A stretch of DNA of 52,403 bases, filler included, from Candidatus Zhuqueibacterota bacterium (GTDB taxonomy: Bacteria; BS750m-G25), in the NCBI GenBank assembly GCA_016783505.1. It is 4 parts of 4 records of this genome, joined end to end, with 100 filler letters (N's around TTAATTAATTAA, not from the genome) between each part and the next. Parts side by side here need not be neighbours in the genome. Positions count along the whole stretch, not along the records: positions 13,318 to 26,321 come from JADHWK010000061.1; 3 more parts are not named here. The stretch is one strand, 5' to 3'. Positions 8,650-27,154 of this stretch are shown piece by piece. The translations under genes and the position numbers were made by a program. Below the pieces are notes generated by a model. That model saw nothing but the letters and a program-made list of their open reading frames with translations, searched no databases and was not told the DNA's origin. How positions within the stretch are numbered: the stretch's first letter is position 1; each line of letters begins with the position of its first letter.

Positions 8650-8659
8650 TGGTTTTCAA

Positions 8660-8789
8660 ACCTAACGATTGCATAACCTGCGCGAAAGATTAAGGTCACG
8701 GAGCGTTGCACAACCACAGAGCTTCGAAGAATGCACCGAGCTCTGGAATCACGTTACAGCTTTCGCGTCAGGTTGATGCGATGTTAGGT
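8660..8789 (-). mobile_element. Integron attC site 1
   Basis: Minus strand ACCTAAC-ATCGCATCAACCTGACGCGAAAG ... CTTTCGCGCAGGTTATGCAATC-GTTAGGT. Confidence 0.9.
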
Positions 8790-8844
8790 ACTCGTTATAG
8801 GATGCATTTTCTGAAAATTAATCCCAGCTTCATTCAATAAAGTA

Positions 8845-9846: not shown

Positions 9847-9886
9847 TCAAATCTATTCTCCTTAAAGAATCAATCCATAAGTTATC

Positions 9887-9960
9887 GTACCTAACCTAGG
9901 TTTCGGTGTACTAATACAAAACGCAAACACGGCAAATCTGGCCGTATAAACTCAGATAAG
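9887..9960 (-). mobile_element. attI-like site (5' boundary of first cassette)
   Basis: GTTAGGTAC at 9895..9887 exactly complements the GTACCTAAC R'' box of this cassette's attC; the preceding CCGAAACCTAG is not an attC arm. Confidence 0.55.
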
Positions 9961-10300
9961 AATTACCAGAAATGAGCAATTAATTAACTATAAAATAAAT
10001 AGCTAAGCTAAGGCGGTCTCTACACCTTCTCAAGTTTATACGGCTTAAAAATGGCATATAAATCCCCAAGATTTTCTTTCGAAATCAATTATTAATCAGG
10101 CTGATTCTATTTATTATACGTCAAAATGAGGCATGTAAACCTAAGAGAAATGTTTGTGATAATATAATTCAAGATATATAAAAAAATTGAATAGACTATA
10201 ATTTCACATTGTAAAGGCTTTAATTGTCCCGCAGAGGCCGGAGCCCCTACGTGACAGTAAAATTAGTTTGCTTGATCTACTTTCTTATATCAAGAAAAAT

Positions 10301-11335: not shown

Positions 11336-12086
11336 TTATCAATTCAAACGAAAAAGGCGAATTTTGTGACCCGGCCACGATGGTATGTTCCCCGGGGTCC
11401 AAAATGACCTTGGTATCCGGAAGATTAGCCCCGATTGGCTGCCCATCAACGATGGTCCCCAGGCGGCTCCCCCGATCGAGGATGAGGACCTGCCCGGCTG
11501 TCTGGTTGATGGAAAAATGGTTGCGGGAGACATTGAAGGGAGCCCCGTCTTCGAGATGAAGATCATTGTATGATAGCACATCGGTGTACAAATCGTGACT
11601 CTCCCGTCCGATCATAAAGGGAAATTTTGTAATCACCATTTTTTGCCCCTTCAGGGCCCTCTTGGCCTCTTCGGAGAGACCAGCCAACACGACTCGGATT
11701 GGCTTTTCAACCGGTGCTTCTTCAGGAACCGGCTCCGCACGACTGACTACCAGCTCATTCATCTGGCGTAGCCGTTCGAACAGAACCTTCATAATGGGCA
11801 TCAGCACTGCGGGGTCTTTACTAAAGCATTCATTAAATTTTTCCCGGTCAAACACATCAAGTTCTACGTCCTCCAGAGCGGTGACAGTGGCCGAGCGGGG
11901 ACGGTCTTCAAACAGCCCCTGATCCCCGAAGATCCCGTCCTTACCTATTTCCGCCAGAACCACCTTCTTCCCATCCTTTCGCTTGGACACCTCAACCCGC
12001 CCCGAACGGATAATATACGCCGAGGTCCCGTAGGATTCCTCCTCAATGATCACATCCCCTTTTTTGAATCGAAGGACATCAATCAT
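11328..12086 (-). CDS. Cyclic-nucleotide-binding domain + FHA domain protein
   Basis: Start reassigned to ATG 12086 (AAGGAG RBS); FGDQGL..RPRSATV cNMP motif; IGR...VSRNH...GSRLGT FHA motif. Confidence 0.85.
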   Translation of the reverse strand: MIDVLRFKKGDVIIEEESYGTSAYIIRSGRVEVSKRKDGKKVVLAEIGKDGIFGDQGLFEDRPRSATVTALEDVELDVFDREKFNECFSKDPAVLMPIMKVLFERLRQMNELVVSRAEPVPEEAPVEKPIRVVLAGLSEEAKRALKGQKMVITKFPFMIGRESHDLYTDVLSYNDLHLEDGAPFNVSRNHFSINQTAGQVLILDRGSRLGTIVDGQPIGANLPDTKVILDPGEHTIVAGSQNSPFSFELIIG

Positions 12087-12108
12087 GGCATTCTCCTTTC
12101 CATAAGGT

Positions 12109-12834
12109 TCAATCGTATTCCTTCCATTTAATGGTATAGAAATAGTTTGATTCACCGGGATATTTATTTTGGGAGATAAAGCATTTAAAATCATCATATT
12201 CATTCGGCCGAATGCAGGTATCGGTGATGACACCGCTCCGGAAGGTATGCCGCGTCCCGTCAACGTAAGCCGAGTCAATCCCCACCGTTTCAGCTTTAGC
12301 ATTCAGAAAGTTGAATTTAATCTGCACGAAATCAGCCCGCCTGGATCCCTTGTTTTTTATCTTACCCACCAGCACCCTCTTCCCCGTATCAGGATCCCTC
12401 CTCGCCAGAATCTTGCCCAGCAGGATGCACTTGGCGGCCCTCTTTACCCGGTCCACCTCCTTGATCTGAATCCACTTCAGGTTCAGAATACCGATGTCCG
12501 TTTCCACGATTACGCTGCGCTTGTCCCGGCGCAAAATGTCCCCGAATACCATTGTCCCGTTGACCAAGGTTATCCGGTCAATTTCCTCTGGGGACTCGAT
12601 AATGGGACCCGTTGACGCCGGCCTGGGGATAAGCCTTCCTAAGCCCTTCCGCTCGGACGCTTTTAAGGCCTCAATTTCCGATTTTAATTGCTCAATTTCC
12701 CGGGTGAGGGAATCTAATTTTGAAGAAACAAGGGAGTCAGAATCCCCCTGGCACCAGCCCCATTCGGGAAATGATAAGACAAAAATTCCCAGGGAAAGCA
12801 TGAAATAACAGCTTAGCCATCTTTTCATACCCAT
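12109..12834 (-). CDS. Secreted hypothetical protein (coiled coil, FxLYD-like C-terminal domain)
   Basis: Signal peptide; GKIKNKG...FVQIKFNF pattern. Confidence 0.7.
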   Translation of the reverse strand: MGMKRWLSCYFMLSLGIFVLSFPEWGWCQGDSDSLVSSKLDSLTREIEQLKSEIEALKASERKGLGRLIPRPASTGPIIESPEEIDRITLVNGTMVFGDILRRDKRSVIVETDIGILNLKWIQIKEVDRVKRAAKCILLGKILARRDPDTGKRVLVGKIKNKGSRRADFVQIKFNFLNAKAETVGIDSAYVDGTRHTFRSGVITDTCIRPNEYDDFKCFISQNKYPGESNYFYTIKWKEYD

Positions 12835-12861
12835 TTTTCGTTCCTCAATGTCTTGACAATT

Positions 12862-13217
12862 CTACTCTGTTTTTCGGCTCATCGCCTCTTGAACCCCGGC
12901 CACCGTCTGCCTCAGGGCCTCCAGGCCCCGATCTCCCCCAATTTTAATTACGCTCTCCTCGACCACGTTGTAGAAAATGTAATTCCTAGGATCCTTCATT
13001 AACTCCAGAAGTCCCTGTAGGGCCACCTCGTTACCGATCATTCCCAGGGTTTCCATGGCCACCAGCCTCACGGACAGATCCTTACGTTCATCCTGGGCCA
13101 GTTCTACCAGAACCGGCACTGCCCGGGGGTCCCCCATTTTCTCGAGGGCCTCAATGATCCGCTGCTCGAGGAGCAAGAATTCCTCGCGGGTGTGGATTAA
13201 GGCCTCCATCAGGATCA
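12862..13217 (-). CDS. HEAT-repeat protein (5' truncated by contig end)
   Basis: ALEKMGDPRAVPVL, TLGMIGNEVAL repeats. Confidence 0.75.
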
Positions 13218-13317
13218 NNNNNNNNNNNNNNNNNNNNNNNNNNNNNNNNNNNNNNNNNNNNTTAATTAATTAANNNNNNNNNNNNNNNNNNNNNNNNNNN
13301 NNNNNNNNNNNNNNNNN
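13218..13317. other. Artificial contig linker
   Basis: N-run with TTAATTAATTAA (stops in all six frames). Confidence 0.98.
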
Positions 13318-13541: not shown

Positions 13542-13925
13542 ATGTCACCGAAGAAGACGCAAAAAGAGATAGATAGGCAGGATCAGATCATTGCCGAGGC
13601 TCGGCGTAACCAAGAACTTCGGGAGAAGACCTATCGGGAGCGAGCGCTCAAGATTTTCCCTGCAATCTGTGCGCGGTGCGGGCGTGAATTCATAGGCAAA
13701 AGACTTCGTGAGCTCACGGTCCATCACAAGGATCACAATCACGATAATAATCCGCCTGACGGAAGCAACTGGGAGTTGCTATGTATTTACTGTCACGATA
13801 ATGAGCATTCGCGATATCTGGATGCGGAATGGTATGAACCGGCGACACCGGGCGCCGAGCAAGAGCCAACTTCTACCTATAAGCCCTTCGCTGGCCTCGA
13901 GGCCTTATTGAAGGACAAAAAGTAG
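13542..13925 (+). CDS. yajD: YajD-family HNH nuclease
   Basis: YRERALK...CARCGREF...LTVHHKDHNHDNNPPDGSNWELLCIYCHDNEH. Confidence 0.85.
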   Translation: MSPKKTQKEIDRQDQIIAEARRNQELREKTYRERALKIFPAICARCGREFIGKRLRELTVHHKDHNHDNNPPDGSNWELLCIYCHDNEHSRYLDAEWYEPATPGAEQEPTSTYKPFAGLEALLKDKK

Positions 13926-14465: not shown

Positions 14466-15908
14466 ATGAAAGAACGATGGTCAAAACCGAATGGATACCG
14501 CCAGGTCCTATCCATCAGCCTCCCTCTGGTGGCTTCCATGGGCTCGATAACTCTGATGCAATTCACCGATCGGATTTTTCTGGCAAATTACTCTGTCGAC
14601 GCAATTTCAGCCGCACTACCGGCAGGCATCGTCTGTTTCACCTTCATCGCCTTTTTTATGGGTGTTGCCAGTTATACAAATGCCTTTGTGGCGCAATATA
14701 CCGGGGCTCAAGCCCTCAACCGGGTGGGCGCCGCCATCTGGCAGGGTATATATTTCTCCCTTTTGTCCGCCGTTCTGCTGGCCTTGCTCTACTTCATCGC
14801 CGACATCCTGTTCGACCTCATCGGCCACTCGCCTCCCATACGGTCACTGGAGGTGACCTATTTCAAAATCCTCACCTTAGGAGCTGGATTGGTCGTGCTG
14901 AGCTCGGCAATGGCCGCTTTTTACACGGGTCGTGGGCTGACCTGGACGGTGATGCTGGTCCACATGGCGGGTACGGCGATCAACATCCCTTTGGACTTCT
15001 GCCTGATCAACGGCTTTGGTCCTTTTCCAGAACTCGGTATTGTGGGGGCGGGCATAGCCACGGTAACAGCCTACTGTATCATCGTGGCTATTCTGAGCAT
15101 CCTGATTTTCAGGCGTGCCAATCGAGAAAAGTTCGGCACCTGGAAAAACAGGGCCTTCGATAAGAAGCTGTTCCGAAGACTGATGCGGTATGGTTTGCCC
15201 AGCGGTATCCAGTTCTTTCTGGAGATTTTTGGGTTTACCTTCTTTATCCAGATGTTAGGACGGCTGGGCGATCTGGAATTGGCCACCTCCAACATTGTAC
15301 TCTCAATCGAGACGTTAGCGTTTCTTCCCATGGTCGGCTTTCATATCGGTAATGCTACACTTGTTGGCCAGGCAATTGGAAGAGGTCAACCTGAAGCTGG
15401 GGTATATTCGACCACGAGCGCGCTGCACATAACCTTAGCCTATATGTTGTTGTTGGCGGCTATATTCGTCATTGTGCCAGAACCACTTCTTTATCTTTTC
15501 AAGGGCAATCACTATGACTCTACACACTATGCCGAAATCATGGATTTAGGTGTGATACTGATGCGGTTTGTGGCCGTATTCTGCTTTTTTGATGCCCTTA
15601 ACCTTATTTACTCAGGGGCCATTAAGGGGGCGGGCGACACCCGGTTCATCATGTGGACCATCGCGGCGCTCTCCATCGGGGTGATGATCGCTCCGGTCTA
15701 CGTCGCCATAGAGTTACTCGGCGCCGGGCTCTATACGGCCTGGACCATAGCTACGCTCTACGTCTGTGCACTGGGTATAGCCTTTATGCTGCGCTACCGC
15801 CAGGGCAAGTGGAAGAAAATGCGGGTCATCGAGGATCAGCCGATTGTGGCCCAGGCCAGAGGCATAGGTGCAGAAGTTTTGGGTGGAGGATTAAAAAGCT
15901 CCAATTAG
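14466..15908 (+). CDS. MATE family efflux transporter
   Basis: ~12 TM helices; DRIFLA, VAQYTGA, VGQAIGRG, GAIKGAGDT motifs. Confidence 0.9.
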   Translation: MKERWSKPNGYRQVLSISLPLVASMGSITLMQFTDRIFLANYSVDAISAALPAGIVCFTFIAFFMGVASYTNAFVAQYTGAQALNRVGAAIWQGIYFSLLSAVLLALLYFIADILFDLIGHSPPIRSLEVTYFKILTLGAGLVVLSSAMAAFYTGRGLTWTVMLVHMAGTAINIPLDFCLINGFGPFPELGIVGAGIATVTAYCIIVAILSILIFRRANREKFGTWKNRAFDKKLFRRLMRYGLPSGIQFFLEIFGFTFFIQMLGRLGDLELATSNIVLSIETLAFLPMVGFHIGNATLVGQAIGRGQPEAGVYSTTSALHITLAYMLLLAAIFVIVPEPLLYLFKGNHYDSTHYAEIMDLGVILMRFVAVFCFFDALNLIYSGAIKGAGDTRFIMWTIAALSIGVMIAPVYVAIELLGAGLYTAWTIATLYVCALGIAFMLRYRQGKWKKMRVIEDQPIVAQARGIGAEVLGGGLKSSN

Positions 15909-16352: not shown

Positions 16353-17381
16353 ATGAATAGCATAGCTGATGAATTAAATATTGAGAATGAATTTTATTTC
16401 CAATGGCATATCACGGAAAAATGCAATCTTAGGTGTAAACACTGTTATCACTCCAATTATACCTCTGCTAATGAATTGAATTTAAATGAATTAATTCTTA
16501 TTGCCGATAAGATTAACTCCACGCTAAGGAAATGGAACAAGGACGGTACGCTTTCCATTACCGGGGGAGAGCCTTTTATGGTTATGGACAAGCTCTTTCC
16601 CCTTTTGCAGCACATTAATTCCCTCGAAACCATCAGCCATTTCGATCTCTTAACTAATGGATCTCTATTTAATGAAGGCATTCTGTCGGAGCTAAAGAAA
16701 TTTAAAAAATTGAGACGGGTTCAAGTCTCTTTGGAGGCGGGAAATCAGAAACTGAATGACCAAATAAGAGGCAATGGTAGTTTTGGAAAAACTTTATCTG
16801 CAATTAGGCTGTTGAAACAGAATGGTTTTCAAGTTGCAGTGATGATGACCCTCAGTCATATGAATAAAAAAGAAGTTGAGCCGCTTATTGAGCTTCTTAA
16901 AAAAGAGGGAGTTAATACCTTTTCTGCCGAACGATTTATTCCCGAGGGGGCTGGAGCCGATCTTAAAGACGAGTTTCTTACCGCCGACGAGGTAAAGGAA
17001 GTATTTCAAAAGATCTATTCCGTGGCAATGAAAGAGGATAAAATAAGGATTTTATTATACCGGCCTCTATTTGCCCTCCTTAACGGTAATGATCCAACTG
17101 TGGGTGCCTTGTGCTCAGTCGGTAATAATGCTCTCACTATCATGCATGACGGGACTATTTACCCTTGCCGGCGACTACCTATCCCCATCGGAAACGCCCT
17201 AACCGACAACTTTTACAAGGTGTGGTACACATCCGAGGTTTTGTGGAATGTCAGAAACCTGAAAAATATTAAAGGAAAATGCACTGACTGTGATCTTATA
17301 CCGGTATGCCGGGGCTGCCGTGCCATGGCCTATGCCCTAACCGGCGATTACCTTGCTGAGGATCCACAATGCTGGAGATAA
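16353..17381 (+). CDS. Radical SAM/SPASM peptide maturase
   Basis: CNLRCKHC (CxxxCxxC), ITGGEP; SPASM C..G..YPC..CxxC.....C.GC..DPQC. Confidence 0.92.
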   Translation: MNSIADELNIENEFYFQWHITEKCNLRCKHCYHSNYTSANELNLNELILIADKINSTLRKWNKDGTLSITGGEPFMVMDKLFPLLQHINSLETISHFDLLTNGSLFNEGILSELKKFKKLRRVQVSLEAGNQKLNDQIRGNGSFGKTLSAIRLLKQNGFQVAVMMTLSHMNKKEVEPLIELLKKEGVNTFSAERFIPEGAGADLKDEFLTADEVKEVFQKIYSVAMKEDKIRILLYRPLFALLNGNDPTVGALCSVGNNALTIMHDGTIYPCRRLPIPIGNALTDNFYKVWYTSEVLWNVRNLKNIKGKCTDCDLIPVCRGCRAMAYALTGDYLAEDPQCWR

Positions 17382-17674
17382 AACAGAACGATACTTTTGT
17401 ATTAGAAGAAAATATCTTTCTTCAAAAGATTAGCGAACTTGGAAAATACTGGGTTTTTAATATTGATACAGGTGAACATTATACGCTTAACGAGACTTCT
17501 TATTGGATATTGGAACAGATAGCTGAGAATTTACCGGCAAAAAATATTTTAAAGGATTTTCTGGAAAACTTTGATGTGGACGAAAATCAGGCCAAGGTTG
17601 ATTTTGGAGAAATATTAACTGGCTTCCTAAAGGAAGGGATTATCAAAAGGAGGGTGAAAGATGAAAAAATATAA
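17369..17674 (+). CDS. PqqD-family RiPP recognition element (RRE)
   Basis: 101 aa; YTLNETSYWILE...FDVD..AKVD...L..F.KEGII pattern; overlaps the rSAM stop. Confidence 0.88.
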   Translation: MLEIKQNDTFVLEENIFLQKISELGKYWVFNIDTGEHYTLNETSYWILEQIAENLPAKNILKDFLENFDVDENQAKVDFGEILTGFLKEGIIKRRVKDEKI

Positions 17675-17801
17675 AAAAAGAGCTTATGAAAAACCCATCC
17701 TAAAAAAAGAAAATACTATGAATTTTCCAATTGAGATTATCAACTCTTCAGGCAAGAGGATCGTTTGCAGGCAGTGTTCCGGTTGTCATGGCTGTAGATG
17801 A
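17661..17801 (+). CDS. Putative RiPP precursor peptide, 46 aa (MKKYKKRAYEKPILKKENTMNFPIEIINSSGKRIVCRQCSGCHGCR)
   Basis: Not in the ORF track; AGGAGG RBS; overlaps RRE stop; YxxPxL leader motif; CxxCxxCxxC core. Confidence 0.88.
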   Translation: MKKYKKRAYEKPILKKENTMNFPIEIINSSGKRIVCRQCSGCHGCR

Positions 17802-17843
17802 TCATGAATTCTTACTTCTATTGAAATGTAGGGCTTATAAAAA

Positions 17844-18557
17844 ATGAAGGACTGCCAAAATTTTCAAATCCAAGGCAAACGCCGAACTTGCAATATATGG
17901 CTGTACCCTGAAGATAATCTTCAACTAAAAAATCTCAACATTGATCCCTTTGACATCATTATCTGTGACGGCCCCTATGGCATTTTGGAAACGGAATGCG
18001 AGTGGGATGATTTTGACCTGAATAGCAAAAATGGCCGTGAAAAATTCCGACAATACTACAGAAACCTCTTTGACGCCTGCCTGAAGCACCTAAAAAAAAC
18101 CGGTTCTATCTTCATCTTCAATTATCCCGAAGGTGCCAGTCTTATCAAATCAGTGCTCGACGAGGAATACCCGGTTCATTTCAGACGCTGGATCACCTGG
18201 GTCTACGATAATCATTTTGACTTTGACCGCGGCGCCAATTTCCGACGCTCCCATGAGACAATTCTCTACTACACAAAGGAACCCGATGGCTTCATCTTTA
18301 AAGGAGCAGATATTCCAGATGTTTTCTTACATCCCATCATTAAAATTAGATCCAATTCTTTCAAAGACGGTGAAAAGCCTCTACCGGTCATCAGGGACCT
18401 ATTAAATGCCACATTTGTCCCTGAAGGAAGGTTGCTCAGCTTGTTCACCGGCTCAGGAACTGACATAGTGGCTGCTTTGGAGTACGATATGGATGTGGTG
18501 GGTTTCGAATTCAATGTGTCCAATTTCAATATGTTAGTTGAACGAATTAAAAATTAA
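17844..18557 (+). CDS. Short beta-class N6-A/N4-C methyltransferase-like protein
   Basis: Motif IV DGPY (DPPY variant) precedes motif I LFTGSGT; HETILYYTK, EKP. Confidence 0.8.
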   Translation: MKDCQNFQIQGKRRTCNIWLYPEDNLQLKNLNIDPFDIIICDGPYGILETECEWDDFDLNSKNGREKFRQYYRNLFDACLKHLKKTGSIFIFNYPEGASLIKSVLDEEYPVHFRRWITWVYDNHFDFDRGANFRRSHETILYYTKEPDGFIFKGADIPDVFLHPIIKIRSNSFKDGEKPLPVIRDLLNATFVPEGRLLSLFTGSGTDIVAALEYDMDVVGFEFNVSNFNMLVERIKN

Positions 18558-18614
18558 AAGGTTCTTAGTTCCAATGCCTATAAACTCCCAAAAGTATGAG
18601 GAGGGAACATAACC

Positions 18615-21600
18615 ATGATGTGTAGGAAAAAAGAAGAGCTTTTTGCTTTTGAAAGTGCATCTATTGAACTCGATATTGCAATTGATGAGCAAGACGAAAA
18701 AAAGTGTAATCGCATTGTTTCCATTCAGAAAGGAGATATTGCTGCTATTAAAGACGCAAAGAACCCAAAACGATTTCGGGAAGCATTAATCAGAAAAGAA
18801 GGCCTACTTCCAATAAATGTTAATGGAAAGAAGTGTTCCATTGATTTTTGGCATGTTTATTTCCTTGCCAAAAGAATTCGTGGAATACTTCAGAATGAAA
18901 ATACTGACAGCCAATCAAAAAAACTTGACTGGGTTGTAGATATATTAATCAGGGAAGCTACATCTAAAATCCCCGATGATGAACAGTTTCAATACCTTCT
19001 GCTTATGCTTGAATTGGCTGCATGTACTATGGGCGAACAATCCCTGGGCTATGCTGAAAAGGCTCGAATAATTCTTGATGACATTAAAAAAAATACGCCC
19101 CCCTTTCTTGCCAATTGGAGTGATGAAGCCTATGAGGCTCTCATTCACTATAACCAAGGTGTTGCCAAACAACACATGGCTTTGCACGATAAGGCACTGA
19201 ATGAGTATGACCAATCTATTAAAAAAATTCATAAAGTTAAAAATCTTATAGATAAATCATGGTTAACCTACGTATACCATCCCGCAATCCTCCAGAAAGC
19301 GGAGGTTCTTATCAAGATGCAGTTTTCTTATAATGCACTGACGGCGCTAAAAAAAATAGATAATGATAGTTCAAGTATTTTTCATCGACGACGACGCGAA
19401 CTTCTCAAATTAACATGCTATATTGATCTATCAGATTGGGACCGATTTGATTCACACTGGAAAGACACGATAGACTGTGAAAAGAAACAATCTGTTTTTT
19501 GTGAAAACAGCAATTCCATTTTTCAAACACCCATTCCCCGACAAAAGGATATTTTAAATTATCTGGACGCTAAAAAACCTCAACGATCCGTTAACAGAAT
19601 CCCTTTTTCTTTGAGTTCTCAATATAACGCCCATGTACTGGATCGCGCGAAAGAACAATTAGCGCAGAAAGTTAAAGACATTGAAAATGAAAAAAATGTA
19701 GAAAAGAAGGGTAAGAAAATTAGAGAAATAAAGGATTATAAAATCTTTTCATTTCTTAAAGACTACATTAAGCAATGTGAGCATAATAGATTTGAGAAGC
19801 TGACGCTCGAAGAAGCGATCCTGGATTATATTGAAATCGTTGGTAGGCTGATTACGAAAGATAAGGGATTTACAAAATCTCCAGATGATTCCTGTAGAGA
19901 TGGACTAGAGGAATTAGTAAGTATTTTAAAAAACAATTCATTTATAAATGAGATAGATTCATTAGACAAGCCATTGGTGCAAAGTGAAACAGTTCAAAAA
20001 GCAAGAAAAGTTTCAGAAGAGATCAATGATTCATTCCTGAAGAAATGGTTCTGCGAAAAAGAAGATGGATTTGATGATTCACTTCCCGAGGACGTAAAAA
20101 TATTTTTTAACTTTGAGAAAGAACTTATCGAAAAACTGATATTCTTGGAGAAACGGACAGATTTACTGCAAAGGATGTATGATAAAAGATCTTTGCAAGA
20201 GCGCGAAATGCTTCTCTCTACAATTTCTAAAAATAAATTTTGTACGAAAAATATTGAAGAATTAAAAACAAAGCTGATAATTTATAAAGATGCTAAAATT
20301 CATGATAACCAAACTAATTGCCTTCAAGAAATTATAAAAGCCATAGACGGCAAACATCCCATTGCCAAGGATTTATTTACGTTGAAGTTCGGAGACTATG
20401 ATAATGTTTTGAAACGGGAGGAACGAAAGTTTCAGAAACACACTACGGGGCGAAGCATCCAACCTCTGCCGGTAAGAGAAGAAAGTAAAAAAGAAAAGTC
20501 GCCAAGTGTCAATTATGTGGGGCTGCGTCGCTGGAACTCCTACACTCCGGAGCTTTCATTTTCCGTGGGTGGAGGCCACTTTGTGTTCCTGTCGGAGGGG
20601 GAAAAAAACAATAAGGGTAAAGTCGGTATTGGCATAGCTGTGGACCCAGGTTTTGATTTCATACGCAATTTTTTTCGCCAAGGTTTTACGCTTACCGATA
20701 TTGATGTCATTCTTCTTACCCATGGTCATCCTGATCACATAAGGGATTTCCCCGCCGTCGTTGAATTGTTGCATGAAAATAAAAAACGCGGAAACGGCCA
20801 GGAAAAGAAAATATATGCCGTTATGAGCCTTGGCTGTTATGAAAGGCTCGATGATTATATTGTAAGGGATCCTTTTAAACTCCTCTTTTATGATACCATC
20901 ATCGTAGACATTGATCAGGGAAGAGAAAATATACAAGACAAAGAGATATGTTTCACATACGACTCGGGAAATAAGGATCATCAAGTAAAACTGATACCTC
21001 CTCAGCCAGACTCGCCCCCAAACGGGGGCAAGAAAATTAGCATACAGTATTTCCCAGCATTCCATACTGACCACAGCGAATCAGATAGCTATGGTTACAT
21101 CATAAAATTAAAGGGCGGTGATGTATCAATCGGATTTACGGGCGACTCAAAGTGGTTTTATGGATACGCCAAAAAATTTGAGAAATGTGACATGATCTGC
21201 TCGCATATCGGATCAATAGCAGAGCCCAAAAAGGATAAGCGACTCAAGGACTATACGACGGTTGGCAAGGTCGAAAGGCTCATGAGGACGAAAGGCCACC
21301 CCTATCTGTTCGGAGAAATTCTCTTTTGGCAGGATTGGCTGAAAATATTCAAAGAGAACGGGAAAAAGACCTTAATGCTCATGTCAGAATTTGGCGAGGA
21401 GATGAAGGGGAAAATCCGGTTCGATCTGGCACAGAGGTTTAATATGCCAGCAAATGGAGGATGTTGTTGGACCGGTTTCGAGCCAGAGCCAAAGAGCGAT
21501 TGGAACTGTAAGTATTATGAGCATTGCAAAGAAGGGGCAAAAAACATGATGGTCATTCCCGTCGACGTGGGGCTTCGAATCAGCATTCCCCTCGGAAAAG

Positions 21601-21830
21601 GAGATGGTCAAAATGAGCAGAGTAACGGTTCTCATCCCCATAGGATACATTGTGTTGTGTGTGACGATTTTGTCGCCCCCGATGAGATCGATTATGAGGT
21701 ATACAGCCACGAAGAAGCAATTTTCTATATCTGCAAAACTTGTCTCCGTTCTACATCCTTTGATGTAAGGCACTCGATATATCAAAAGTATCATGAGAAT
21801 GGCCGTGAGATAGAGAAAGATGACTTATAG
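18615..21830 (+). CDS. Large TPR-like/helical + metallo-beta-lactamase-fold hydrolase + C-terminal Zn-finger protein
   Basis: LRRWNSYTP, VDPGFDF, THGHPDH (HxHxDH), FH.D, FTGDS, SEFGEE; CVVC...CKTC. Confidence 0.8.
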   Translation: MMCRKKEELFAFESASIELDIAIDEQDEKKCNRIVSIQKGDIAAIKDAKNPKRFREALIRKEGLLPINVNGKKCSIDFWHVYFLAKRIRGILQNENTDSQSKKLDWVVDILIREATSKIPDDEQFQYLLLMLELAACTMGEQSLGYAEKARIILDDIKKNTPPFLANWSDEAYEALIHYNQGVAKQHMALHDKALNEYDQSIKKIHKVKNLIDKSWLTYVYHPAILQKAEVLIKMQFSYNALTALKKIDNDSSSIFHRRRRELLKLTCYIDLSDWDRFDSHWKDTIDCEKKQSVFCENSNSIFQTPIPRQKDILNYLDAKKPQRSVNRIPFSLSSQYNAHVLDRAKEQLAQKVKDIENEKNVEKKGKKIREIKDYKIFSFLKDYIKQCEHNRFEKLTLEEAILDYIEIVGRLITKDKGFTKSPDDSCRDGLEELVSILKNNSFINEIDSLDKPLVQSETVQKARKVSEEINDSFLKKWFCEKEDGFDDSLPEDVKIFFNFEKELIEKLIFLEKRTDLLQRMYDKRSLQEREMLLSTISKNKFCTKNIEELKTKLIIYKDAKIHDNQTNCLQEIIKAIDGKHPIAKDLFTLKFGDYDNVLKREERKFQKHTTGRSIQPLPVREESKKEKSPSVNYVGLRRWNSYTPELSFSVGGGHFVFLSEGEKNNKGKVGIGIAVDPGFDFIRNFFRQGFTLTDIDVILLTHGHPDHIRDFPAVVELLHENKKRGNGQEKKIYAVMSLGCYERLDDYIVRDPFKLLFYDTIIVDIDQGRENIQDKEICFTYDSGNKDHQVKLIPPQPDSPPNGGKKISIQYFPAFHTDHSESDSYGYIIKLKGGDVSIGFTGDSKWFYGYAKKFEKCDMICSHIGSIAEPKKDKRLKDYTTVGKVERLMRTKGHPYLFGEILFWQDWLKIFKENGKKTLMLMSEFGEEMKGKIRFDLAQRFNMPANGGCCWTGFEPEPKSDWNCKYYEHCKEGAKNMMVIPVDVGLRISIPLGKGDGQNEQSNGSHPHRIHCVVCDDFVAPDEIDYEVYSHEEAIFYICKTCLRSTSFDVRHSIYQKYHENGREIEKDDL

Positions 21831-22620
21831 AGAACCCAATCTGGCCGCTGCCGCTATCGGGCTTATTCGCGCAGTTAATGATTCTCTTGAACTTGGGAGA
21901 AGGGCAATCCCCTCTTATGTTTTGAGCTATGAAGGTCTAACTTCATCTCTTGTAGCTGATGAAGAACTCCGCCAAACTCAGAAGGATGATGGGGGCTGGA
22001 ATAATGTTCGTGACACGGCACTGCTTGCGGCACTATGTCACCTTCGCAGATCACTCCAGGACTGTTACCAGTCTGCTCTTTCCTGGCTTACAGAAGTCCG
22101 AAAAGACAATGGGGAGTGGGGTTTAACTGAACGTGATACGAGCCGCATCCCAGTTACTGGGCTTTTGCTTTATCTCCTCCCCGAACTTTCCGACCAAAAG
22201 GTGGTAAACTGGCTCAAAAATGAATGGAGGAAGGATTTTGAGGGTGCCACCAGACTTACTTACAAGGGGGCCTTCTTCTTGTTAGGATTGTCCGCGTCAA
22301 GGGTAGCCATTGATGATTGCCCGTTGATTGAGGAAACTTACTCTTTCCTGCATGCTGAACAAAACCAAGACGGCGGGTTTGGGCCTTGGAAGGACCATCC
22401 CATTGGGAGTGAACCCTGGTCAACCGGAATTGTGCTGCTCGGTTTGGTTTCTTATCCTGATCTGACAGATCGAAGCGTTATAGAAAGGGCCGTCAACTGG
22501 CTGGCTGAGAATCAATTGCCCAATGGCTTGTGGGCCTATCACTATATTGAAGAAGGCTCTGCCTATGCATACTGGGGATTGGTGGAAGCATTAAAATATT
22601 TATCGAAAGAGTCAAACTGA
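21820..22620 (+). CDS. Prenyltransferase/squalene-cyclase repeat (alpha/alpha toroid) protein
   Basis: QW-like repeats QKDDGGW, RKDNGEW, QNQDGGF, QLPNGLW. Confidence 0.8.
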   Translation: MTYREPNLAAAAIGLIRAVNDSLELGRRAIPSYVLSYEGLTSSLVADEELRQTQKDDGGWNNVRDTALLAALCHLRRSLQDCYQSALSWLTEVRKDNGEWGLTERDTSRIPVTGLLLYLLPELSDQKVVNWLKNEWRKDFEGATRLTYKGAFFLLGLSASRVAIDDCPLIEETYSFLHAEQNQDGGFGPWKDHPIGSEPWSTGIVLLGLVSYPDLTDRSVIERAVNWLAENQLPNGLWAYHYIEEGSAYAYWGLVEALKYLSKESN

Positions 22621-24434
22621 TGTGTGGAATTTGTGGAATATATAACGAAAAGAACTTAAGCACAGTAACCGCCATGCTTGAATCTATTCACCATCGTGGG
22701 CCTGACTCTTTTAGGACTATGCTATTTGGAAAACACTCTCTGGGAGAATGCGGGCTAAATATTGTTAGAAGTAAAGACGATACGTTACCTTTGATAGATG
22801 AGGAAAATGAGATAGCCCTGCTTTTTAATGGGGAGATTTACAATTATCAAGAGATCAAAGATGAACTAGTAAAGGAAGGATATATTTTCACTTCCAATAC
22901 AGACTCAGAAGTGATTATCCCTCTTTATAGAAAATACGGGAAGGATTTCGTGAAGCATCTGAAGGGGATGTTTGCAATTGTCATTATAGATAAAGAGCAG
23001 ATTATCCTGGCCCGTGATAAGTTCGGTATTAAGCCCCTTTATTATTATCAGATAGGTGACAGGCTTATCTTTGGTTCCGAGATAAAGGCCTTGCTCCAGT
23101 ATCCTGATGTTCCGGCTGACCTGGACCTGGAATCATTAAAAGAGCTAATGGTCTTCGGGTACATCTTTTCTCCTGACCGAACGCTGCTGAAAGATATTTA
23201 CCAGGTTTCTCCCGGATCGGTTGTTATTTTTGGTGGGAATAGGATTTCGGAACACAAATATTATCAAATCCCCACTCCCTTTTATCAGGATAACGGGAAT
23301 ATCGTCTATGAAGATTCTATCCTCCAATTGACAGCGAGTTTGCTAAAGACTTTTGAATTATTCCATGATCACGGGGATCAGGAAAAGGGCATATATCTGT
23401 CAGGTGGTCTGGATTCCACACTAATGGCGGTTCTGTCGAAGGAAGTTATAAACAAGCCCATCCACACTTACACCCTGTATGATTCCGAAGATGCCCCGGA
23501 TTTTAATTATGCCCGGAGAGCCGCAAGGGCTATAGGGTCCAAGCATCATGAATTTCTCGTCACGCCTGAAGATTACTTTAAAGAACTACCCCATTTTGTG
23601 TATCACTATGAAAATCTCATCGCAGGTGGCGTATTTGATATTCAGGGCGGTATAGCCTTTCAGATTCTCTCAGAGCATATTTCTGACTTTCACAAGGTGG
23701 CCTTTACCGGTGAAGGGGCAGATGAACTCTTTGGAGGGTATTACTGGATTTATACCCATCCATTGGGTTTCTCCGACAGAATCAGAGAAAGGGCCTCTAA
23801 GCTTCCTGCCTATTCCAGAGTAAGGAAGGTCGTCCAGGATATTTTCCCCCCACCTGAGGACGAAGCAACCTATAGGAAGAATCTGTTCCATATACTTATG
23901 GGAGCAGGTCTTGCAAATTACCATTTATGGAGTGTGGACAGGTCCTGTGGTTCCTTTGGATTCGAAGCAAGGCCTCCTTACCTATATGATGATCTTGCCG
24001 AATATGCCCTGTCACTTCCTATTGACTTCAAGGTCTCTGGTAAATCGATCACCAAGAAGATACTTAAAGACGTGGCGCAGCCTTTTTTCAGGAAACATGG
24101 CTTGGAAGAAATTTTAACAAGAAAAAAATACGGAATGCCTGCTGCCATTGACGGTATAAGCCCCAAAATAAGACGACAGATCAATAATCTCGTCCCGTAC
24201 GAAACTATTGAGCAACACCCTTTCAGGGATTACATCAAAGACGCTGTGGATGTCTTAATGTTTGACCTGTTTTATTACTTCGTAATCCAAAAGCGGGGAA
24301 AGTTCGAGACCGGATTTTCAATAGATGAGTTTTATAAAGGTCGCATAAATGAAGATATGTATGATCAGCAAATATCCGCCCATTCAGGGGGGAATTTCCG
24401 CCAAGACCTACTGGTTGGCACAGGGCCTTGCTGA
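22620..24434 (+). CDS. Asparagine synthetase B-family amidotransferase
   Basis: MCGICG (Cys1 nucleophile), HRGPD, FNGEIYN, ARDKFGIKPLYY, LSGGLDS, TGEGADELFGGY. Confidence 0.9.
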   Translation: MCGICGIYNEKNLSTVTAMLESIHHRGPDSFRTMLFGKHSLGECGLNIVRSKDDTLPLIDEENEIALLFNGEIYNYQEIKDELVKEGYIFTSNTDSEVIIPLYRKYGKDFVKHLKGMFAIVIIDKEQIILARDKFGIKPLYYYQIGDRLIFGSEIKALLQYPDVPADLDLESLKELMVFGYIFSPDRTLLKDIYQVSPGSVVIFGGNRISEHKYYQIPTPFYQDNGNIVYEDSILQLTASLLKTFELFHDHGDQEKGIYLSGGLDSTLMAVLSKEVINKPIHTYTLYDSEDAPDFNYARRAARAIGSKHHEFLVTPEDYFKELPHFVYHYENLIAGGVFDIQGGIAFQILSEHISDFHKVAFTGEGADELFGGYYWIYTHPLGFSDRIRERASKLPAYSRVRKVVQDIFPPPEDEATYRKNLFHILMGAGLANYHLWSVDRSCGSFGFEARPPYLYDDLAEYALSLPIDFKVSGKSITKKILKDVAQPFFRKHGLEEILTRKKYGMPAAIDGISPKIRRQINNLVPYETIEQHPFRDYIKDAVDVLMFDLFYYFVIQKRGKFETGFSIDEFYKGRINEDMYDQQISAHSGGNFRQDLLVGTGPC

Positions 24435-25464
24435 AAGAGGTATTGAGACCCATGTAGTCACCAACGGAAATTGTGTAGAGAGCGAATATCGTATTGAGGA
24501 TACCTCTCCTAAACCGCATCCTAACCTGCATATCCATTTCATAGATCCTGACCTCCCATGGCATATCCCTTATTCTGACTTGTATGTCCCAAGGTTATTG
24601 GACAAGGCCCTTCAAGTAACCCGCGAAAACCAAGTTGCTCTCATAGACACAGGATACCTCATCCCGTATGGAATCGTGGGATATCTCCTTTCTGAGATGA
24701 CAGGAATCCCCTATGTCTTGCGGCATGGCGGCAGTGACCTCGAGAAGTTCTTCCGACAGGGAGTATTTAGTGATCTTCTGAAAAAGGTGATTCAAAGCGC
24801 GGCGGCCATCATCACCGATAGGCACAACAAGGAGGTCTTTCAGAGTCTCAATTCGCGCCTGTACATAGTGCCCAGGTATATCCCCGACGAGAGATATTTC
24901 AGGCCTTCCATATCACCACATGACACGCCAACCTTCGCCTATATAGGGAAGATTAACTATCACTGGAGGCATAAAAGCCTACACAGAATTGCGGAAATAT
25001 TTGATGGGCTTAAAAGGGACTACCGCTTGATTTTTGTTGGTCAAGGCAAGGGATTCGAGGACTTTTCGGAATTCGTTTCGGGATATGGCCTGAGGGGATT
25101 TGAGTTTCGCCAATTCGTCCATCCTGCGAATATGCCTGGTTTGCTCAATGAGATAGATTTCCTGATTTGCTTTACAAAAGACAACCCCATCAAAGACTTT
25201 ATGAATATTTTCTCCGAAGCCCTGTGGTCGGGAGTCCGGGTGCTCACTGATGATACAATGGATTTGGACACCTATACGGAACATATTGAACTGGCTGATC
25301 AGGCTCAGATAGTCAATCTGCCCATAGATGATGTTGGAGCGACACAATCCAAAATCATTGATATGATAAGAGACTGGGACGGGCCATCTCGATACAACAA
25401 CAAATTGAAATACGACTTCAATAGATATTTGGACGCAAATTTGGAGATATATCATCGGATTTGA
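24349..25464 (+). CDS. GT-B (GT4-like) glycosyltransferase
   Basis: MKICMISKYPPIQGG...LAERG..THVVT, HGGSDL, EALWSG. Confidence 0.82.
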   Translation: MKICMISKYPPIQGGISAKTYWLAQGLAERGIETHVVTNGNCVESEYRIEDTSPKPHPNLHIHFIDPDLPWHIPYSDLYVPRLLDKALQVTRENQVALIDTGYLIPYGIVGYLLSEMTGIPYVLRHGGSDLEKFFRQGVFSDLLKKVIQSAAAIITDRHNKEVFQSLNSRLYIVPRYIPDERYFRPSISPHDTPTFAYIGKINYHWRHKSLHRIAEIFDGLKRDYRLIFVGQGKGFEDFSEFVSGYGLRGFEFRQFVHPANMPGLLNEIDFLICFTKDNPIKDFMNIFSEALWSGVRVLTDDTMDLDTYTEHIELADQAQIVNLPIDDVGATQSKIIDMIRDWDGPSRYNNKLKYDFNRYLDANLEIYHRI

Positions 25465-25476
25465 ACAAACTTGGTG

Positions 25477-25986
25477 ATGAAAATTCTTATAACGGGCATC
25501 GGCAATATCGGGAAAAGCACCCTAAGGGAGATGGTGGCTCACAAATTCCCCGATCGGGTTATTCAAATAGATATGGACTACCATTCCCATGAGGACATCC
25601 CGGAATCCTCTGACAAGGTTATACTGGTTGAAGACGTGCATGGTCTGGAAAGGAATCCTGAGCAATATGACAAAATAATTTATCTTATGCCACCGTCAAA
25701 TCACTTCATCTTGTGGCTGAAGAGGGCTTGGGCATGGTTTTCCGGTGGAATAGTTGATTTATCTGCCCCAAAAGGTATTAATAAGCACTGTGCATTTTCC
25801 AACATCCCGATAATTGTGAAGATAGTGTTGAGGAATATCGTGTCGGCCAGGCGATGGGTCCTGGGCGATATGGAGACCATAAAGAGGAAATTCGAGGACA
25901 AAACCGTCATAGTTGATACTGTATCTGACGGCTTTCAGGAAATTGGAAAATTACTTTCACGAAATGGGAGTGAGGAAATTATATGA
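25477..25986 (+). CDS. P-loop nucleotide-kinase-like protein
   Basis: MKILITGIGNIGKST Walker A at N-terminus. Confidence 0.72.
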   Translation: MKILITGIGNIGKSTLREMVAHKFPDRVIQIDMDYHSHEDIPESSDKVILVEDVHGLERNPEQYDKIIYLMPPSNHFILWLKRAWAWFSGGIVDLSAPKGINKHCAFSNIPIIVKIVLRNIVSARRWVLGDMETIKRKFEDKTVIVDTVSDGFQEIGKLLSRNGSEEII

Positions 25987-26058: not shown

Positions 26059-26184
26059 ATGGCCCGAAAGAAAAAAGGAAATGAAGCAAAGGTCGAGGAT
26101 TACAGGCATGGGGATGCAAAACGGAAGAACATTCCTCCGGTTGGATTGGCTGCCTGTTGCCACACTCCTGAGGTGGCCAAATAG
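26059..26184 (+). pseudogene. Truncated N-terminus of a Mod-type DNA methyltransferase
   Basis: MARKKKGNEAKVEDYRHGDAKRKNIPPVGLA.. stops after 41 codons; GGAG RBS; DYRH..KRKNIPP.GLA resembles Mod-type N-termini (recalled, not searched). Confidence 0.5.
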
Positions 26185-26321: not shown

Positions 26322-26421
26322 NNNNNNNNNNNNNNNNNNNNNNNNNNNNNNNNNNNNNNNNNNNNTTAATTAATTAANNNNNNNNNNNNNNNNNNNNNNN
26401 NNNNNNNNNNNNNNNNNNNNN
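26322..26421. other. Artificial contig linker
   Basis: N-run with TTAATTAATTAA. Confidence 0.98.
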
Positions 26422-26659: not shown

Positions 26660-27154
26660 TTGAAGGTGAACAAGAATTTATCTGATTTATTAACACGTTT
26701 AAAGAAAGAACTTTTAGCTTCCCAAGGCGACAATATCGTCTCAATAGTGATATTTGGCTCCGTGGGAAGGGATGAGTTTGATAAAACATCCGATGTTGAC
26801 GTCTTAATAGTTTGTCACCAACTACCCAAAAGCTGTTTTAAAAGGAGTGATTTTTTCATTAATGTTGAGAAGAAACTAAAGGAAACGGGATCCGGACTTT
26901 ATTCGTCAGGTCATCGCCCTTTTCTATCACCGATCATTAAAACAACTGCCGAGGCCAGAATTATCACCCCCCTTTACTTAGATATGGTAGAAGATGCGAT
27001 GATAATCTATGATAGGGATGATTTTTTCGCAGAAATTCTTCAAAAGGTTAAGCAGAAACTGGATAAACTGGGGAGTAAAAGAATTTATCGGAATGGAAAA
27101 TGGTATTGGGACTTGAAACCCTCCTATAAATTTGGTGAGATTTTTGAAATATGA
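26660..27154 (+). CDS. Minimal nucleotidyltransferase (MNT antitoxin type)
   Basis: FGSVGR...SDVDVL; C-terminal WYWDLKP. Confidence 0.85.
   Translation: MKVNKNLSDLLTRLKKELLASQGDNIVSIVIFGSVGRDEFDKTSDVDVLIVCHQLPKSCFKRSDFFINVEKKLKETGSGLYSSGHRPFLSPIIKTTAEARIITPLYLDMVEDAMIIYDRDDFFAEILQKVKQKLDKLGSKRIYRNGKWYWDLKPSYKFGEIFEI

Follow-up and report, generated by a model that had tools for sequence, protein, structure and literature searches.

A conserved, probable peptide-modification operon on a Zhuqueibacterota contig

The stretch of DNA analysed here (the window; 52,403 nucleotides, filler included) comes from a metagenome-assembled genome (MAG) of a Candidatus Zhuqueibacterota bacterium (GCA_016783505.1), which comprises 2.5 Mb in 89 contigs and is 59.9% complete. 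It consists of four whole contigs laid end to end (C77, 1-13217; C78, 13318-26321; C79, 26422-39369; C80, 39470-52403) and separated by three N44-TTAATTAATTAA-N44 spacers at 13218-13317, 26322-26421 and 39370-39469; gene neighbourhood is therefore not readable across the spacers. The subject of this study is a run of nine genes at 16353-25986, lying entirely within C78 (13,004 bp), in which a radical S-adenosylmethionine (rSAM)/SPASM enzyme, a PqqD-family protein and a short Cys-rich peptide are followed by genes for further enzymes (Table 1). Seven of these genes were found to form the core of one conserved, co-inherited operon, which probably makes a tailored peptide of the RiPP type (peptides made by ribosomes and modified after translation). 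As the run is confined to C78, the genes past 26321 (a nucleotidyltransferase, a GGDEF regulator and others) are not its neighbours.

The nine open reading frames (ORFs) are closely packed on one strand, with junctions that are overlaps of 13, 14, 11, 1 and 86 nt or gaps of 42, 57 and 6 nt. ORF calls, Pfam and NCBIfam agree with the first-pass annotation, which had described nine co-oriented, tightly packed genes with named domains, except that the label 'kinase' for the gene at the 3′ end found no support (see below). Also borne out was its statement that the run contains neither a transporter nor a protease: none was annotated within the nine genes by Pfam or NCBIfam, and a MatE gene lies 445 bp upstream. 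An Rfam scan of C78 gave nothing near any gathering score, and scans for promoters (29 versus 26.8 expected from shuffled sequence) and terminators (18 versus 12.1) gave nothing usable 5′ of the operon.

Table 1. Coordinates of the genes in the window and of related or inserted genes at other loci (locus number before the colon)
Feature	Role	Position	Strand	Basis
rSAM/SPASM peptide maturase	core	16353-17381	+	Pfam Radical_SAM, SPASM
PqqD-family RiPP recognition element, discrete gene	core	17369-17674	+	Pfam PqqD
Precursor peptide, 46 aa	core	17661-17801	+	translation; no Pfam/NCBIfam family
N6_N4 DNA-methylase-family protein, 237 aa	accessory	17844-18557	+	PF01555
TPR-like/MBL/zinc-ribbon-like protein, 1071 aa	core	18615-21830	+	Lactamase_B_2, AF2 model
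Alpha/alpha toroid, 266 aa, single domain	core	21820-22620	+	SQHop_cyclase_C/Prenyltrans, weak
Glutamine-hydrolysing AsnB-family amidotransferase	core	22620-24434	+	Asn_synthase + GATase_7, TIGR01536
Divergent GT-B glycosyltransferase, GT4 type	core	24349-25464	+	Pfam GT4-type matches under cutoff
Small P-loop NTPase, 171 aa	accessory	25471-25986	+	P-loop match alone
MatE (MATE-family efflux) gene	non-core	14466-15908	+	Pfam MatE 2.2e-35
Truncated ORF, 41 aa	flank	26059-26184		
Truncated ORF, 74 aa	flank	L005:9137-9361		
ORF, 127 aa, near C78 start	flank	13542-13925		PADLOC HNH endonuclease, weak
MNT-type nucleotidyltransferase, contig C79	unrelated	26660-27154		PADLOC PDC-S09
P-loop NTPase/TPR-MBL fusion, 1197 aa	other locus	L016:7847-11440		
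Second, divergent rSAM gene	other locus	L016:11459-12562		
Two precursor genes	other locus	L068:4208-4348, L068:6394-6531		
About 580-aa accessory protein	accessory	L004:15695-17428, L005:7277-9013, L076:17056-18825, L068:4393-6207, L008:12848-13783, L063:3948-4340		no Pfam family
214-aa accessory protein	accessory	L002:15899-16543, L008:6506-7162, L075:4876-5271		
Metallophos/NACHT-like/TPR gene, 1291 aa	insert	L008:8343-12218		
ORF, 607 aa (also in L061)	insert	L064:6716-8539		no Pfam family
Region of an MBL-domain homologue, 661 aa, and flanking matches, IMG/VR contig	outside family	L140:~7897-12952		

Seven genes recur together in fixed order across phyla

Related loci were collected by way of the 1071-aa protein, whose N-terminal part resembles tetratricopeptide repeats (TPR) and which carries a metallo-β-lactamase (MBL) domain. 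This protein is rare: a word-limited homologue search found 21 relatives, 16 of which were aligned, and the alignment was used to collect 59 loci from genome contigs, the best 80 of 174 from metagenome contigs and one distant locus from viral contigs. Family profiles built from the first 18 loci were then run against all six-frame ORFs of the 140 loci, and each gene was counted among the loci with room, that is, those whose contig extends far enough to hold the gene in question.

A true family member was present in 96 loci, or 82 after loci at least 95% identical were merged. Among loci with room, the peptide gene was found in 63/66, the PqqD gene in 62/63, the rSAM gene in 58/59, the toroid gene in 72/73, the gene of the AsnB-family amidotransferase in 65/65 and that of the glycosyltransferase (GT4) in 53/53; at the loci with absences (L107, L116 and L121) the MBL gene matched in part only or a methyltransferase (MTase) gene occupied the room. 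The core order of rSAM/SPASM, PqqD, peptide, TPR-MBL, alpha/alpha toroid, AsnB and GT4 was constant in all loci but L016, where the genes lie on two strands yet the full set is present. Moreover, across the 41 loci in which all five large proteins are complete, pairwise distances of rSAM correlated with those of MBL, toroid, AsnB and GT4 (Spearman rho 0.62, 0.76, 0.85 and 0.64, respectively; Mantel p = 0.001 each, a test that kinship among sequences inflates).

For the reverse direction (the rSAM-PqqD-peptide trio without the downstream genes), a light test covered six host genomes and a sample of one class. In the window's genome and in 5/5 other host genomes searched, the peptide gene occurs once, within the cluster; among 209 genomes of the class of one host it was found in 1, which is that host itself. 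Since the presence counts and the distance correlations agree, the trio and the downstream genes travel together, and recurrence in 82 non-redundant loci puts the arrangement far beyond chance. The run had been proposed to be one system rather than a set of chance neighbours, and this held, as both halves co-occur in essentially every related locus and independent occurrence was not seen among the loci and host genomes examined. Its extent was narrowed: seven genes, not nine, are the core, with the MTase (6/82 non-redundant loci plus the window) and the P-loop protein (11/82 plus the window) being accessory.

The hosts are scattered, mostly anaerobic bacteria of at least six phyla, including Desulfobacterales and other Deltaproteobacteria, Calditrichaeota, Chloroflexota, Hippea, Syntrophorhabdaceae, Ca. 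Aquicultor and Actinomycetes. The cluster is rare, at 18 of 185,579 species genomes in a scan with the MBL protein. A tblastn search of the MBL protein against plasmids gave no match, and the scan of viral contigs found no family member, its sole product being a distant MBL-domain homologue (L140; 94 bits, outside the family). Two weak matches of radical SAM type (79 and 45 bits) flank that homologue.

The precursor peptide is conserved over its full length

The window peptide has a Lys-rich N-terminus with Y-E-K-P and M-x-F-P motifs and a C-terminal core, V-C-R-Q-C-S-G-C-H-G-C-R; neither A-C-G-x repeats nor an in-frame TGA in its gene were found. All 67 of the 67 distinct peptides collected, each of 43-48 aa, end in C-[RKMH]-Q-C-S-[SGN]-C-H-[GNSA]-C-[RK]. 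In an alignment of 45 sequences, with a mean column identity of 64%, the invariant residues are Y9, P12, F22, P23, C36, Q38, C39, S40, C42, H43 and C45, and thus conservation spans the whole peptide, leader included, at about the level of the enzymes. This fits a fixed product better than an arms-race component, and such strict full-length conservation in several phyla points to a single, defined product whose target is itself conserved. The C-terminal core has no conserved Asp or Glu, which leaves the C-terminal carboxylate as its only conserved carboxyl.

No Pfam or NCBIfam model matched the peptide. A profile search of a 5.8-billion-protein metagenomic collection returned 956 homologous protein clusters; among the 120 listed, all are unnamed or 'hypothetical protein', save one mislabelled 'cytochrome c'. 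In L068, two precursor genes with few residue differences stand on either side of an accessory gene of about 600 aa.

Predicted maturation enzymes of the core

The first gene encodes a radical SAM domain (PF04055, 3e-21) and a SPASM domain (PF13186, 8.5e-8), with a CxxxCxxC motif and a full seven-Cys SPASM motif in its translation. Together with the PqqD-fold RiPP recognition element (RRE) and the adjoining short precursor gene, this rSAM/SPASM core presents the general hallmarks of rSAM/SPASM RiPP pathways. The PqqD gene, which overlaps the rSAM gene by 13 nt, matches Pfam PqqD at 3e-9 (37.5 bits; cutoff 23.4). The best NCBIfam matches of the rSAM enzyme are all below cutoff, led by the ACGX system TIGR04340 (198.3 bits; cutoff 400) and SbtM TIGR04082 (164.5; 350), with AhbD and NirJ-type enzymes as further matches, and its nearest solved structures by sequence are SkfB and CteB. 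Models of sacti- and ranthipeptide maturases scored lower still (PapB 84 bits, cutoff 340; StsB 82.2, 625; CefB 64.5, 600; AlbA 67.1, 850), as did those of cofactor maturases (PqqE 69.4, cutoff 381.35; MftC 99.8, 265). SbtM is described as an rSAM-SPASM enzyme acting on a Cys or selenocysteine near the peptide C-terminus, which loses four hydrogens as it is converted to a thio(seleno)oxazole (PMC11002830). Since the relatives of the rSAM enzyme include SkfB and CteB as well as SbtM, thioether and thiooxazole formation are both kept as options. In L016, a second, divergent radical SAM gene adjoins the fused TPR-MBL gene, the remaining cluster being on the opposite strand.

The AsnB protein carries Asn_synthase and GATase_7 domains in Pfam and exceeds the cutoff of TIGR01536 (334.9 bits; cutoff 267.1). 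Its next-best model is the N-acetylglutaminylglutamine amidotransferase (274 bits; cutoff 570), an enzyme that amidates a peptide carboxylate, and the lasso cyclase model NF033535 scored 134.6 bits (cutoff 525). Because the nucleophile C2 and the PP-loop residues S261-G262-G263 and S266 are invariant in 16/16 sequences and the lasso model scores low, AsnB is predicted to be a working amidotransferase and not a lasso cyclase; its substrate may be free Asp or a peptide. The GT4 gene, whose start overlaps the 3′ end of AsnB by 86 nt, matches Glyco_trans_4_4 (27.8 bits) and Glyco_transf_4 (26.0 bits), both just below cutoff, as well as Glycos_transf_1 and, weakly, the NCBIfam BshA model (2e-4). 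Within its family, 34 residues are invariant in 15 sequences, K201 and E290 included.

The 1071-aa protein harbours a Lactamase_B_2 domain (6.4e-12) with an intact HxHxDH motif, and H703, D707, H708, H817, D819, D844, H864, H895, C1013, C1016, C1040 and C1043 are invariant in the alignment. Its AlphaFold2 (AF2) model (mean predicted local distance difference test (pLDDT) 76.6) shows helices over residues 6-578, then the MBL domain, and then a small C-terminal β unit with CxxC...CxxC that is zinc-ribbon-like. Foldseek neighbours of the MBL domain were YhfI, the ElaC homologue 1zkp, PNGM-1, tRNase Z, RNase J, Apyc1 and PqqB (4z7r, E = 9.1e-5), and by this modelled structure the domain belongs to the phosphodiesterase/nuclease branch of the fold (RNase Z/ElaC type). 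The first-pass name 'TPR-MBL' was upheld by Pfam in its MBL half; the TPR half is suggested by the all-helical model and by TPR look-alikes of the N-terminal 585 aa or so in a language-model search (score 0.94; 166-169 shared features, which is borderline). Sequence-only searches of the PDB with the MBL domain and with the P-loop protein gave nothing below E = 0.04. A predicted three-chain complex of the TPR domain (1-585), toroid and peptide scored 0.00 and 0.02 against a mark of 0.32, which has no bearing either way.

The toroid matches SQHop_cyclase_C at 3.6e-8, and its family profile matches squalene-hopene cyclase (SHC) at 3.6e-15. Its AF2 model (pLDDT 94.7) came closest to class II terpene cyclase domains in Foldseek (E of about 4e-7) and, by VIA-align, to SHC 1gsz (Z 24.9; root-mean-square deviation 2.4 Å over 250 residues), drimenyl diphosphate synthase (Z 24.2) and single-domain cyclases (Z 22-23), with sugar epimerases, glycoside hydrolases, thioester domains and prenyltransferase β subunits at Z of 20 or less. 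The profile alignment sets the family motif D-x-E-E-T-A opposite D-V-D-D-T-A of SHC. Among 72 homologues, 57 have D-x-E-[ED], three have S-x-E-E and 12 lack the middle acid; the window (N-V-R-D) is among these 12, and its toroid does not keep the DxDD general-acid motif of class II terpene cyclases. The zinc sites of LanC and of protein prenyltransferases require a Cys ligand, and since no Cys is conserved in a 16-sequence toroid alignment, a zinc site of that type is unlikely. The earlier label was 'prenyltransferase-fold'; prenylation found no support, there being no prenyl donor enzyme and no conserved Cys. The toroids of the window, L001 and L002, all of which have the MTase gene, lack the middle acid, a pattern that could stem from lineage or from a linked functional change.

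Accessory genes and inserts

The MTase matches PF01555 at 71.3 bits (cutoff 26.7) and, over its full length, PADLOC MTase_II PDLC03371 at 3.7e-24. Its motif I reads F-T-G-S-G, and its motif IV, D42-G43-P44-Y45, is invariant in 3/3 aligned sequences; the canonical motif IV of N6/N4 DNA methyltransferases is (D/S/N)-P-P-(Y/F/W). The gene is confined to the close clade of the window and always lies between the peptide and MBL genes (L001, L002, L060, L061/L064, L116 and L123).

The last gene of the run, first taken for a kinase, matched no kinase family: by Pfam, NCBIfam, the PDB and homologue clusters it encodes an unclassified small P-loop NTPase. It has a Walker A motif (G-x4-G-K-S) and a D-V-H-G motif; its sole Pfam match is nSTAND3 (8e-4, residues 5-60), NCBIfam and PADLOC gave none, and the only PDB match was Rab-33B (E = 0.3). 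Of its 251 homologue clusters, the 120 listed are without any Pfam domain, and one carries the source label 'GTPase SAR1'. In L016 the TPR-MBL protein carries the P-loop NTPase as an N-terminal fusion, which argues that the two proteins work together.

A MatE homologue flanks the cluster in L002 (downstream), L004 (upstream) and the window, that is, in 2/82 loci plus the window, the other loci being without one; MatE is thus a possible exporter in this clade only. An accessory protein of about 580 aa follows the P-loop gene in L004, L005, L008 and L076, lies between the two peptide genes in L068 and comes after AsnB in L063. Its Atlas look-alikes at 0.9 or above are unnamed clusters, and an HD look-alike reached only 0.78, which is below threshold; H-x-x-H and H-D motifs read by eye in the L005 protein suggest an HD-type phosphohydrolase. 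A 214-aa accessory protein comes after AsnB, standing between AsnB and GT4 in L002 and L008, and one member of its family has a weak 4Fe-4S ferredoxin motif (Fer4, 0.0016). Single loci hold further inserts. Between the GT4 and P-loop genes of L008 lies a gene with a calcineurin-like phosphoesterase domain (Metallophos), a NACHT-like NTPase and TPRs, a STAND-type architecture. Between the toroid and AsnB genes of L064 and L061 lies an ORF unrelated to the 580-aa protein.

Just 3′ of the cluster is a short truncated ORF with 66% identity over 41 aa to its counterpart on the same side of the cluster in L005. This ORF, which is on the same contig as the run, had been called a Mod remnant; its presence was confirmed but its identity as a methylase could not be, as it gave neither a PADLOC match nor a plasmid tblastn match, and it is flanking debris common to the clade. 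Near the start of C78, a 127-aa ORF has weak matches to PADLOC HNH endonucleases (ZorE2, 1.3e-6). The nucleotidyltransferase on C79 (PADLOC PDC-S09, 1.7e-13) is unrelated to the cluster, as it is on another contig.

Genomic context and defence genes

PADLOC v2 matched the run only with the generic pVip model (rSAM core) and MTase_II, and returned nothing for PqqD, the peptide, MBL, toroid, AsnB, GT4 or the P-loop protein; thus, no system-specific PADLOC model matches the core proteins. Pfam and PADLOC scans of flank ORFs placed restriction-modification (R-M) or other defence genes beside at least 20 loci, among them DruE-like (L001), type I R-M (L012, L060, L076, L104 and L112), type IIG (L113), a type II pair (L128), Snf2/DrmD-like (L062 and L080), AbiE (L080) and PDC-S02 (L060, L104 and L130). 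To gauge this, flank ORFs were sampled at random in two sets, 150 of 280 from within 6 kb of the cluster and, as control, 122 of 239 from around MBL homologues that are distant and outside the family (L020-L055), a match being a PADLOC E value of 1e-8 or lower. Matches numbered 34/150 in the case sample versus 18/122 in the control (odds ratio 1.7; Fisher p = 0.12, not significant), and by locus 20/57 versus 13/36 were defence-flanked (p = 1.0). As the control is weak (other phyla, a related protein family) and p is not significant, the link to defence can at most be called suggestive. It is clear that the cluster lies in variable regions, but this fits secondary metabolism as well as defence.

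A proposed pathway and its alternatives

We propose that the run is one horizontally mobile RiPP-type operon with a seven-gene core, and that it probably makes a tailored peptide with four Cys and one His. By analogy with their families, PqqD would bind the conserved N-terminal part of the peptide (Y-E-K-P, M-x-F-P) and present it to the rSAM/SPASM enzyme, which would modify the C-terminal C-x-Q-C-S-x-C-H-x-C-[RK]. The product of that reaction may be Cys-to-carbon thioethers, as in sacti- and ranthipeptides, or Cys-derived thiooxazoles, as with SbtM, the two being rated about equally likely. More tentatively, AsnB might adenylate and amidate a carboxylate, most likely the C-terminal one since it is the only conserved carboxyl in the core; GT4 might attach a sugar, for which the invariant Ser40 or a Cys is the likeliest site; and the toroid and the TPR-MBL protein might bind or process the peptide. 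Each single tailoring step, taken on its own, is at best a doubtful assignment. Given that conservation extends over the whole peptide but to no protease or transporter, the product would be a full-length or nearly full-length tailored peptide that stays intracellular or at the cell surface, and it may be metal-binding or redox-active rather than a variable secreted toxin. A heavily tailored peptide had been the alternative in the first-pass annotation and is now the better-supported reading, except for its prenylation part.

Several points weigh against this proposal. Every enzymatic step after peptide recognition is inferred, and the rSAM enzyme reaches no curated cutoff of any characterised maturase. 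The MBL domain, most like phosphodiesterases and nucleases such as RNase Z, YhfI and Apyc1, has no obvious peptide role; the accessory genes have a nucleotide or nucleic-acid flavour (a DNA-MTase-family protein, a P-loop NTPase and the 580-aa protein with its sub-threshold HD look-alike); and toroids from the clade of the window do not retain the catalytic-acid position. The defence genes flanking at least 20 loci count here too, and the rare, patchy spread suits accessory conflict genes as well as secondary metabolism.

In one alternative, the reading preferred in the first-pass annotation, the cluster serves intracellular conflict or anti-phage defence: the TPR/RNase Z-like MBL/zinc-ribbon protein would be a nuclease, or an effector or sensor that degrades nucleotides, with the modified peptide serving it as cofactor, activator or inhibitor, and the MTase, where present, would be a protector of self DNA. 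The nearest relatives of the MBL domain (RNase Z/ElaC, YhfI, RNase J and the anti-Pycsar nuclease Apyc1) agree with it, as do the L016 fusion, whose NTPase-repeat-effector layout is like that of STAND proteins, the Metallophos-NACHT-like-TPR gene within the L008 cluster, the DNA-MTase-family gene inside the operon in one clade, the type I, II and IIG R-M, DruE-like, DrmD/BrxH-like, AbiE, Hhe/Mko-like and PDC-S02 genes in the flanks, and the patchy distribution across phyla. However, the core proteins match no PADLOC defence model beyond the generic rSAM and MTase ones, the flank enrichment is not significant by protein or by locus and its control is weak, most loci lack the MTase and P-loop genes, the peptide and the enzymes show uniform conservation and no trace of diversification, and the scans of viral contigs and plasmids found no family member and no match, respectively. 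We therefore consider this alternative unlikely, and a DNA or conflict role as first argued is not sustained: the MTase and the P-loop protein are accessory, the kinase is unsupported and the Mod remnant is unconfirmed debris. In its boldest form, the cluster would be a RiPP-dependent intracellular immune or conflict module: the cell would make an rSAM-modified Cys4-His peptide, also glycosylated and amidated, that acts on a TPR/RNase Z-like nuclease as ligand, cofactor or brake, and in some lineages a P-loop NTPase, an HD-like hydrolase and a methylase for self-protection would be coupled to this nuclease. This is a long shot; if it is true, no defence system before it will have had a ribosomal modified peptide at its centre. 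About as improbable is another bold reading, that the product is an anaerobe's oxygen-independent, rSAM-made (not MNIO-made) counterpart of thiooxazole metallophores.

More doubtful still is a cofactor akin to pyrroloquinoline quinone (PQQ) or mycofactocin, for which the C-terminal residues would be modified by rSAM and a fragment excised and glycosylated or amidated, with the MBL protein in a PqqB-like or excision role. PQQ and mycofactocin clusters also pair rSAM/SPASM and PqqD with a short, fully conserved peptide and no transporter, and the glycosyltransferase MftF takes part in mycofactocin biosynthesis; this resemblance in layout, the single-copy peptide and the presence of PqqB among the structural matches of the MBL domain speak for such a cofactor. 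But many phosphodiesterases are at least as close to the MBL domain as PqqB is, the PqqE and MftC models score far under cutoff, the core set has no peptidase, no cofactor-dependent enzymes are linked to the cluster, and its spread is too rare and patchy for a housekeeping cofactor. Chance neighbouring of the rSAM-RRE-peptide trio with sugar- or polysaccharide-type genes (AsnB, GT4 and others) can hardly be credited. AsnB and GT4 pairs are common in exopolysaccharide loci, AsnB matches the NCBIfam XrtA/PEP-CTERM amidotransferase at 232 bits, and G+C is about 0.36-0.40 in the first four genes and about 0.44-0.45 in the last five; yet co-occurrence is nearly complete and order fixed in 82 non-redundant loci of several phyla, distances correlate between the two halves, and start and stop codons overlap across junctions. 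Chance juxtaposition was rejected on the co-occurrence counts, the fixed order and the distance correlations.

Comparison with known systems

The closest analogue in layout is SCIFF (six cysteines in forty-five), with the ranthipeptides, while the ACGX system and SbtM are closest in rSAM sequence and PQQ and mycofactocin in logic. SCIFF precursors are Lys-rich, widely conserved peptides of about 45 aa with C-terminal cysteines, encoded beside an RRE-using rSAM/SPASM maturase, with no dedicated protease or transporter. Like SCIFF, ranthipeptide and sactipeptide clusters, the family described here has a short, Lys-rich, conserved Cys precursor beside an rSAM/SPASM enzyme whose nearest solved relatives are CteB and SkfB. 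Unlike them, its four Cys are set in C-x2-C-x2-C-x2-C with invariant Gln, Ser and His; there are four invariant Cys rather than the six of SCIFF, and neither the SCIFF model nor any other peptide model matches. Its RRE is a separate PqqD gene, and the PapB, StsB, CefB and AlbA models reach 64-84 bits against cutoffs of 340-850. To our knowledge, no ranthi- or sactipeptide cluster has these four further enzymes strictly co-conserved.

The ACGX system differs in that its model is matched at less than cutoff (198.3 bits against 400) and in that the peptide here is without A-C-G-x repeats. SbtM is the second-best curated match of the rSAM enzyme, and the peptide likewise has Cys near its C-terminus, but the match (164.5 bits against 350) covers model positions 197-515 only, the N-terminal part of SbtM is absent here, the peptide gene lacks an in-frame TGA and the partner enzymes differ. 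Cys-derived thiooxazoles, as in the MNIO-made metallophores (bufferins), give conserved metal-binding peptides, and thiooxazoles have an absorbance near 302-305 nm (PMC12538549).

With PQQ and mycofactocin the cluster shares an rSAM/SPASM enzyme, PqqD, a short conserved peptide, an MBL-fold protein (PqqB in PQQ synthesis, a structural match of the MBL domain here), a glycosyltransferase (MftF in mycofactocin synthesis) and the lack of an exporter. It differs in that a peptidase, an oxidase of the PqqC or MftD type and linked dehydrogenases are all missing, and its precursor is Cys-based, whereas those of PQQ and mycofactocin are Glu/Tyr- or Val-Tyr-based.

Among AsnB-family enzymes, TsrC of thiostrepton and the enzymes acting on meso-diaminopimelate (mDAP) of peptidoglycan are amidotransferases of peptide carboxylates. 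AsnO, the N-acetylglutaminylglutamine amide (NAGGN) amidotransferase, has the same intact glutamine-hydrolysing AsnB architecture as the protein here, its model being matched below cutoff (274 bits against 570). Lasso peptide clusters also offer likenesses, in that PqqD-type B1 models are the best NCBIfam matches of the RRE (28.4 and 26.7 bits), the operon includes an AsnB homologue and a Y-x-x-P motif occurs in the leader. In contrast to lasso cyclases, however, the AsnB protein keeps Cys2 and fits the Asn-synthase model better than the lasso one (334.9 versus 134.6 bits), an rSAM enzyme is present, and there is no B2 transglutaminase-like protease in the run or in the related loci. The toroid shares with class II terpene cyclases (SHC, drimenyl diphosphate synthase and MstE) its fold, QW-like repeats and an aligned acidic motif, but it is one 266-aa domain in a peptide-modification operon that has no prenyl or terpene biosynthesis gene.

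The partner set had not been recognised from a described RiPP class, and no curated family, PADLOC model or paper was found to match it; a literature search, which covered neither supplements nor subscription journals, found no paper on this peptide motif or gene set. The cluster represents a new RiPP-type family with an unprecedented fixed partner set; it differs from the systems described so far, but to call it a categorically new kind would be premature. Pathways that combine rSAM/SPASM enzymes with an RRE are known, but none was found in which a single invariant peptide has as its fixed partners a terpene-cyclase-like toroid, a TPR-MBL protein, a GT4 and a true AsnB that depends on glutamine. 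With 956 homologue clusters of the peptide in public metagenomes, the family is not a one-off. It offers a tractable case in which to look for new chemistry on peptides, such as the action of a class II cyclase fold or of an MBL phosphodiesterase fold, and it could reveal a new physiological role in anaerobes, be it in metal handling, redox chemistry or conflict.

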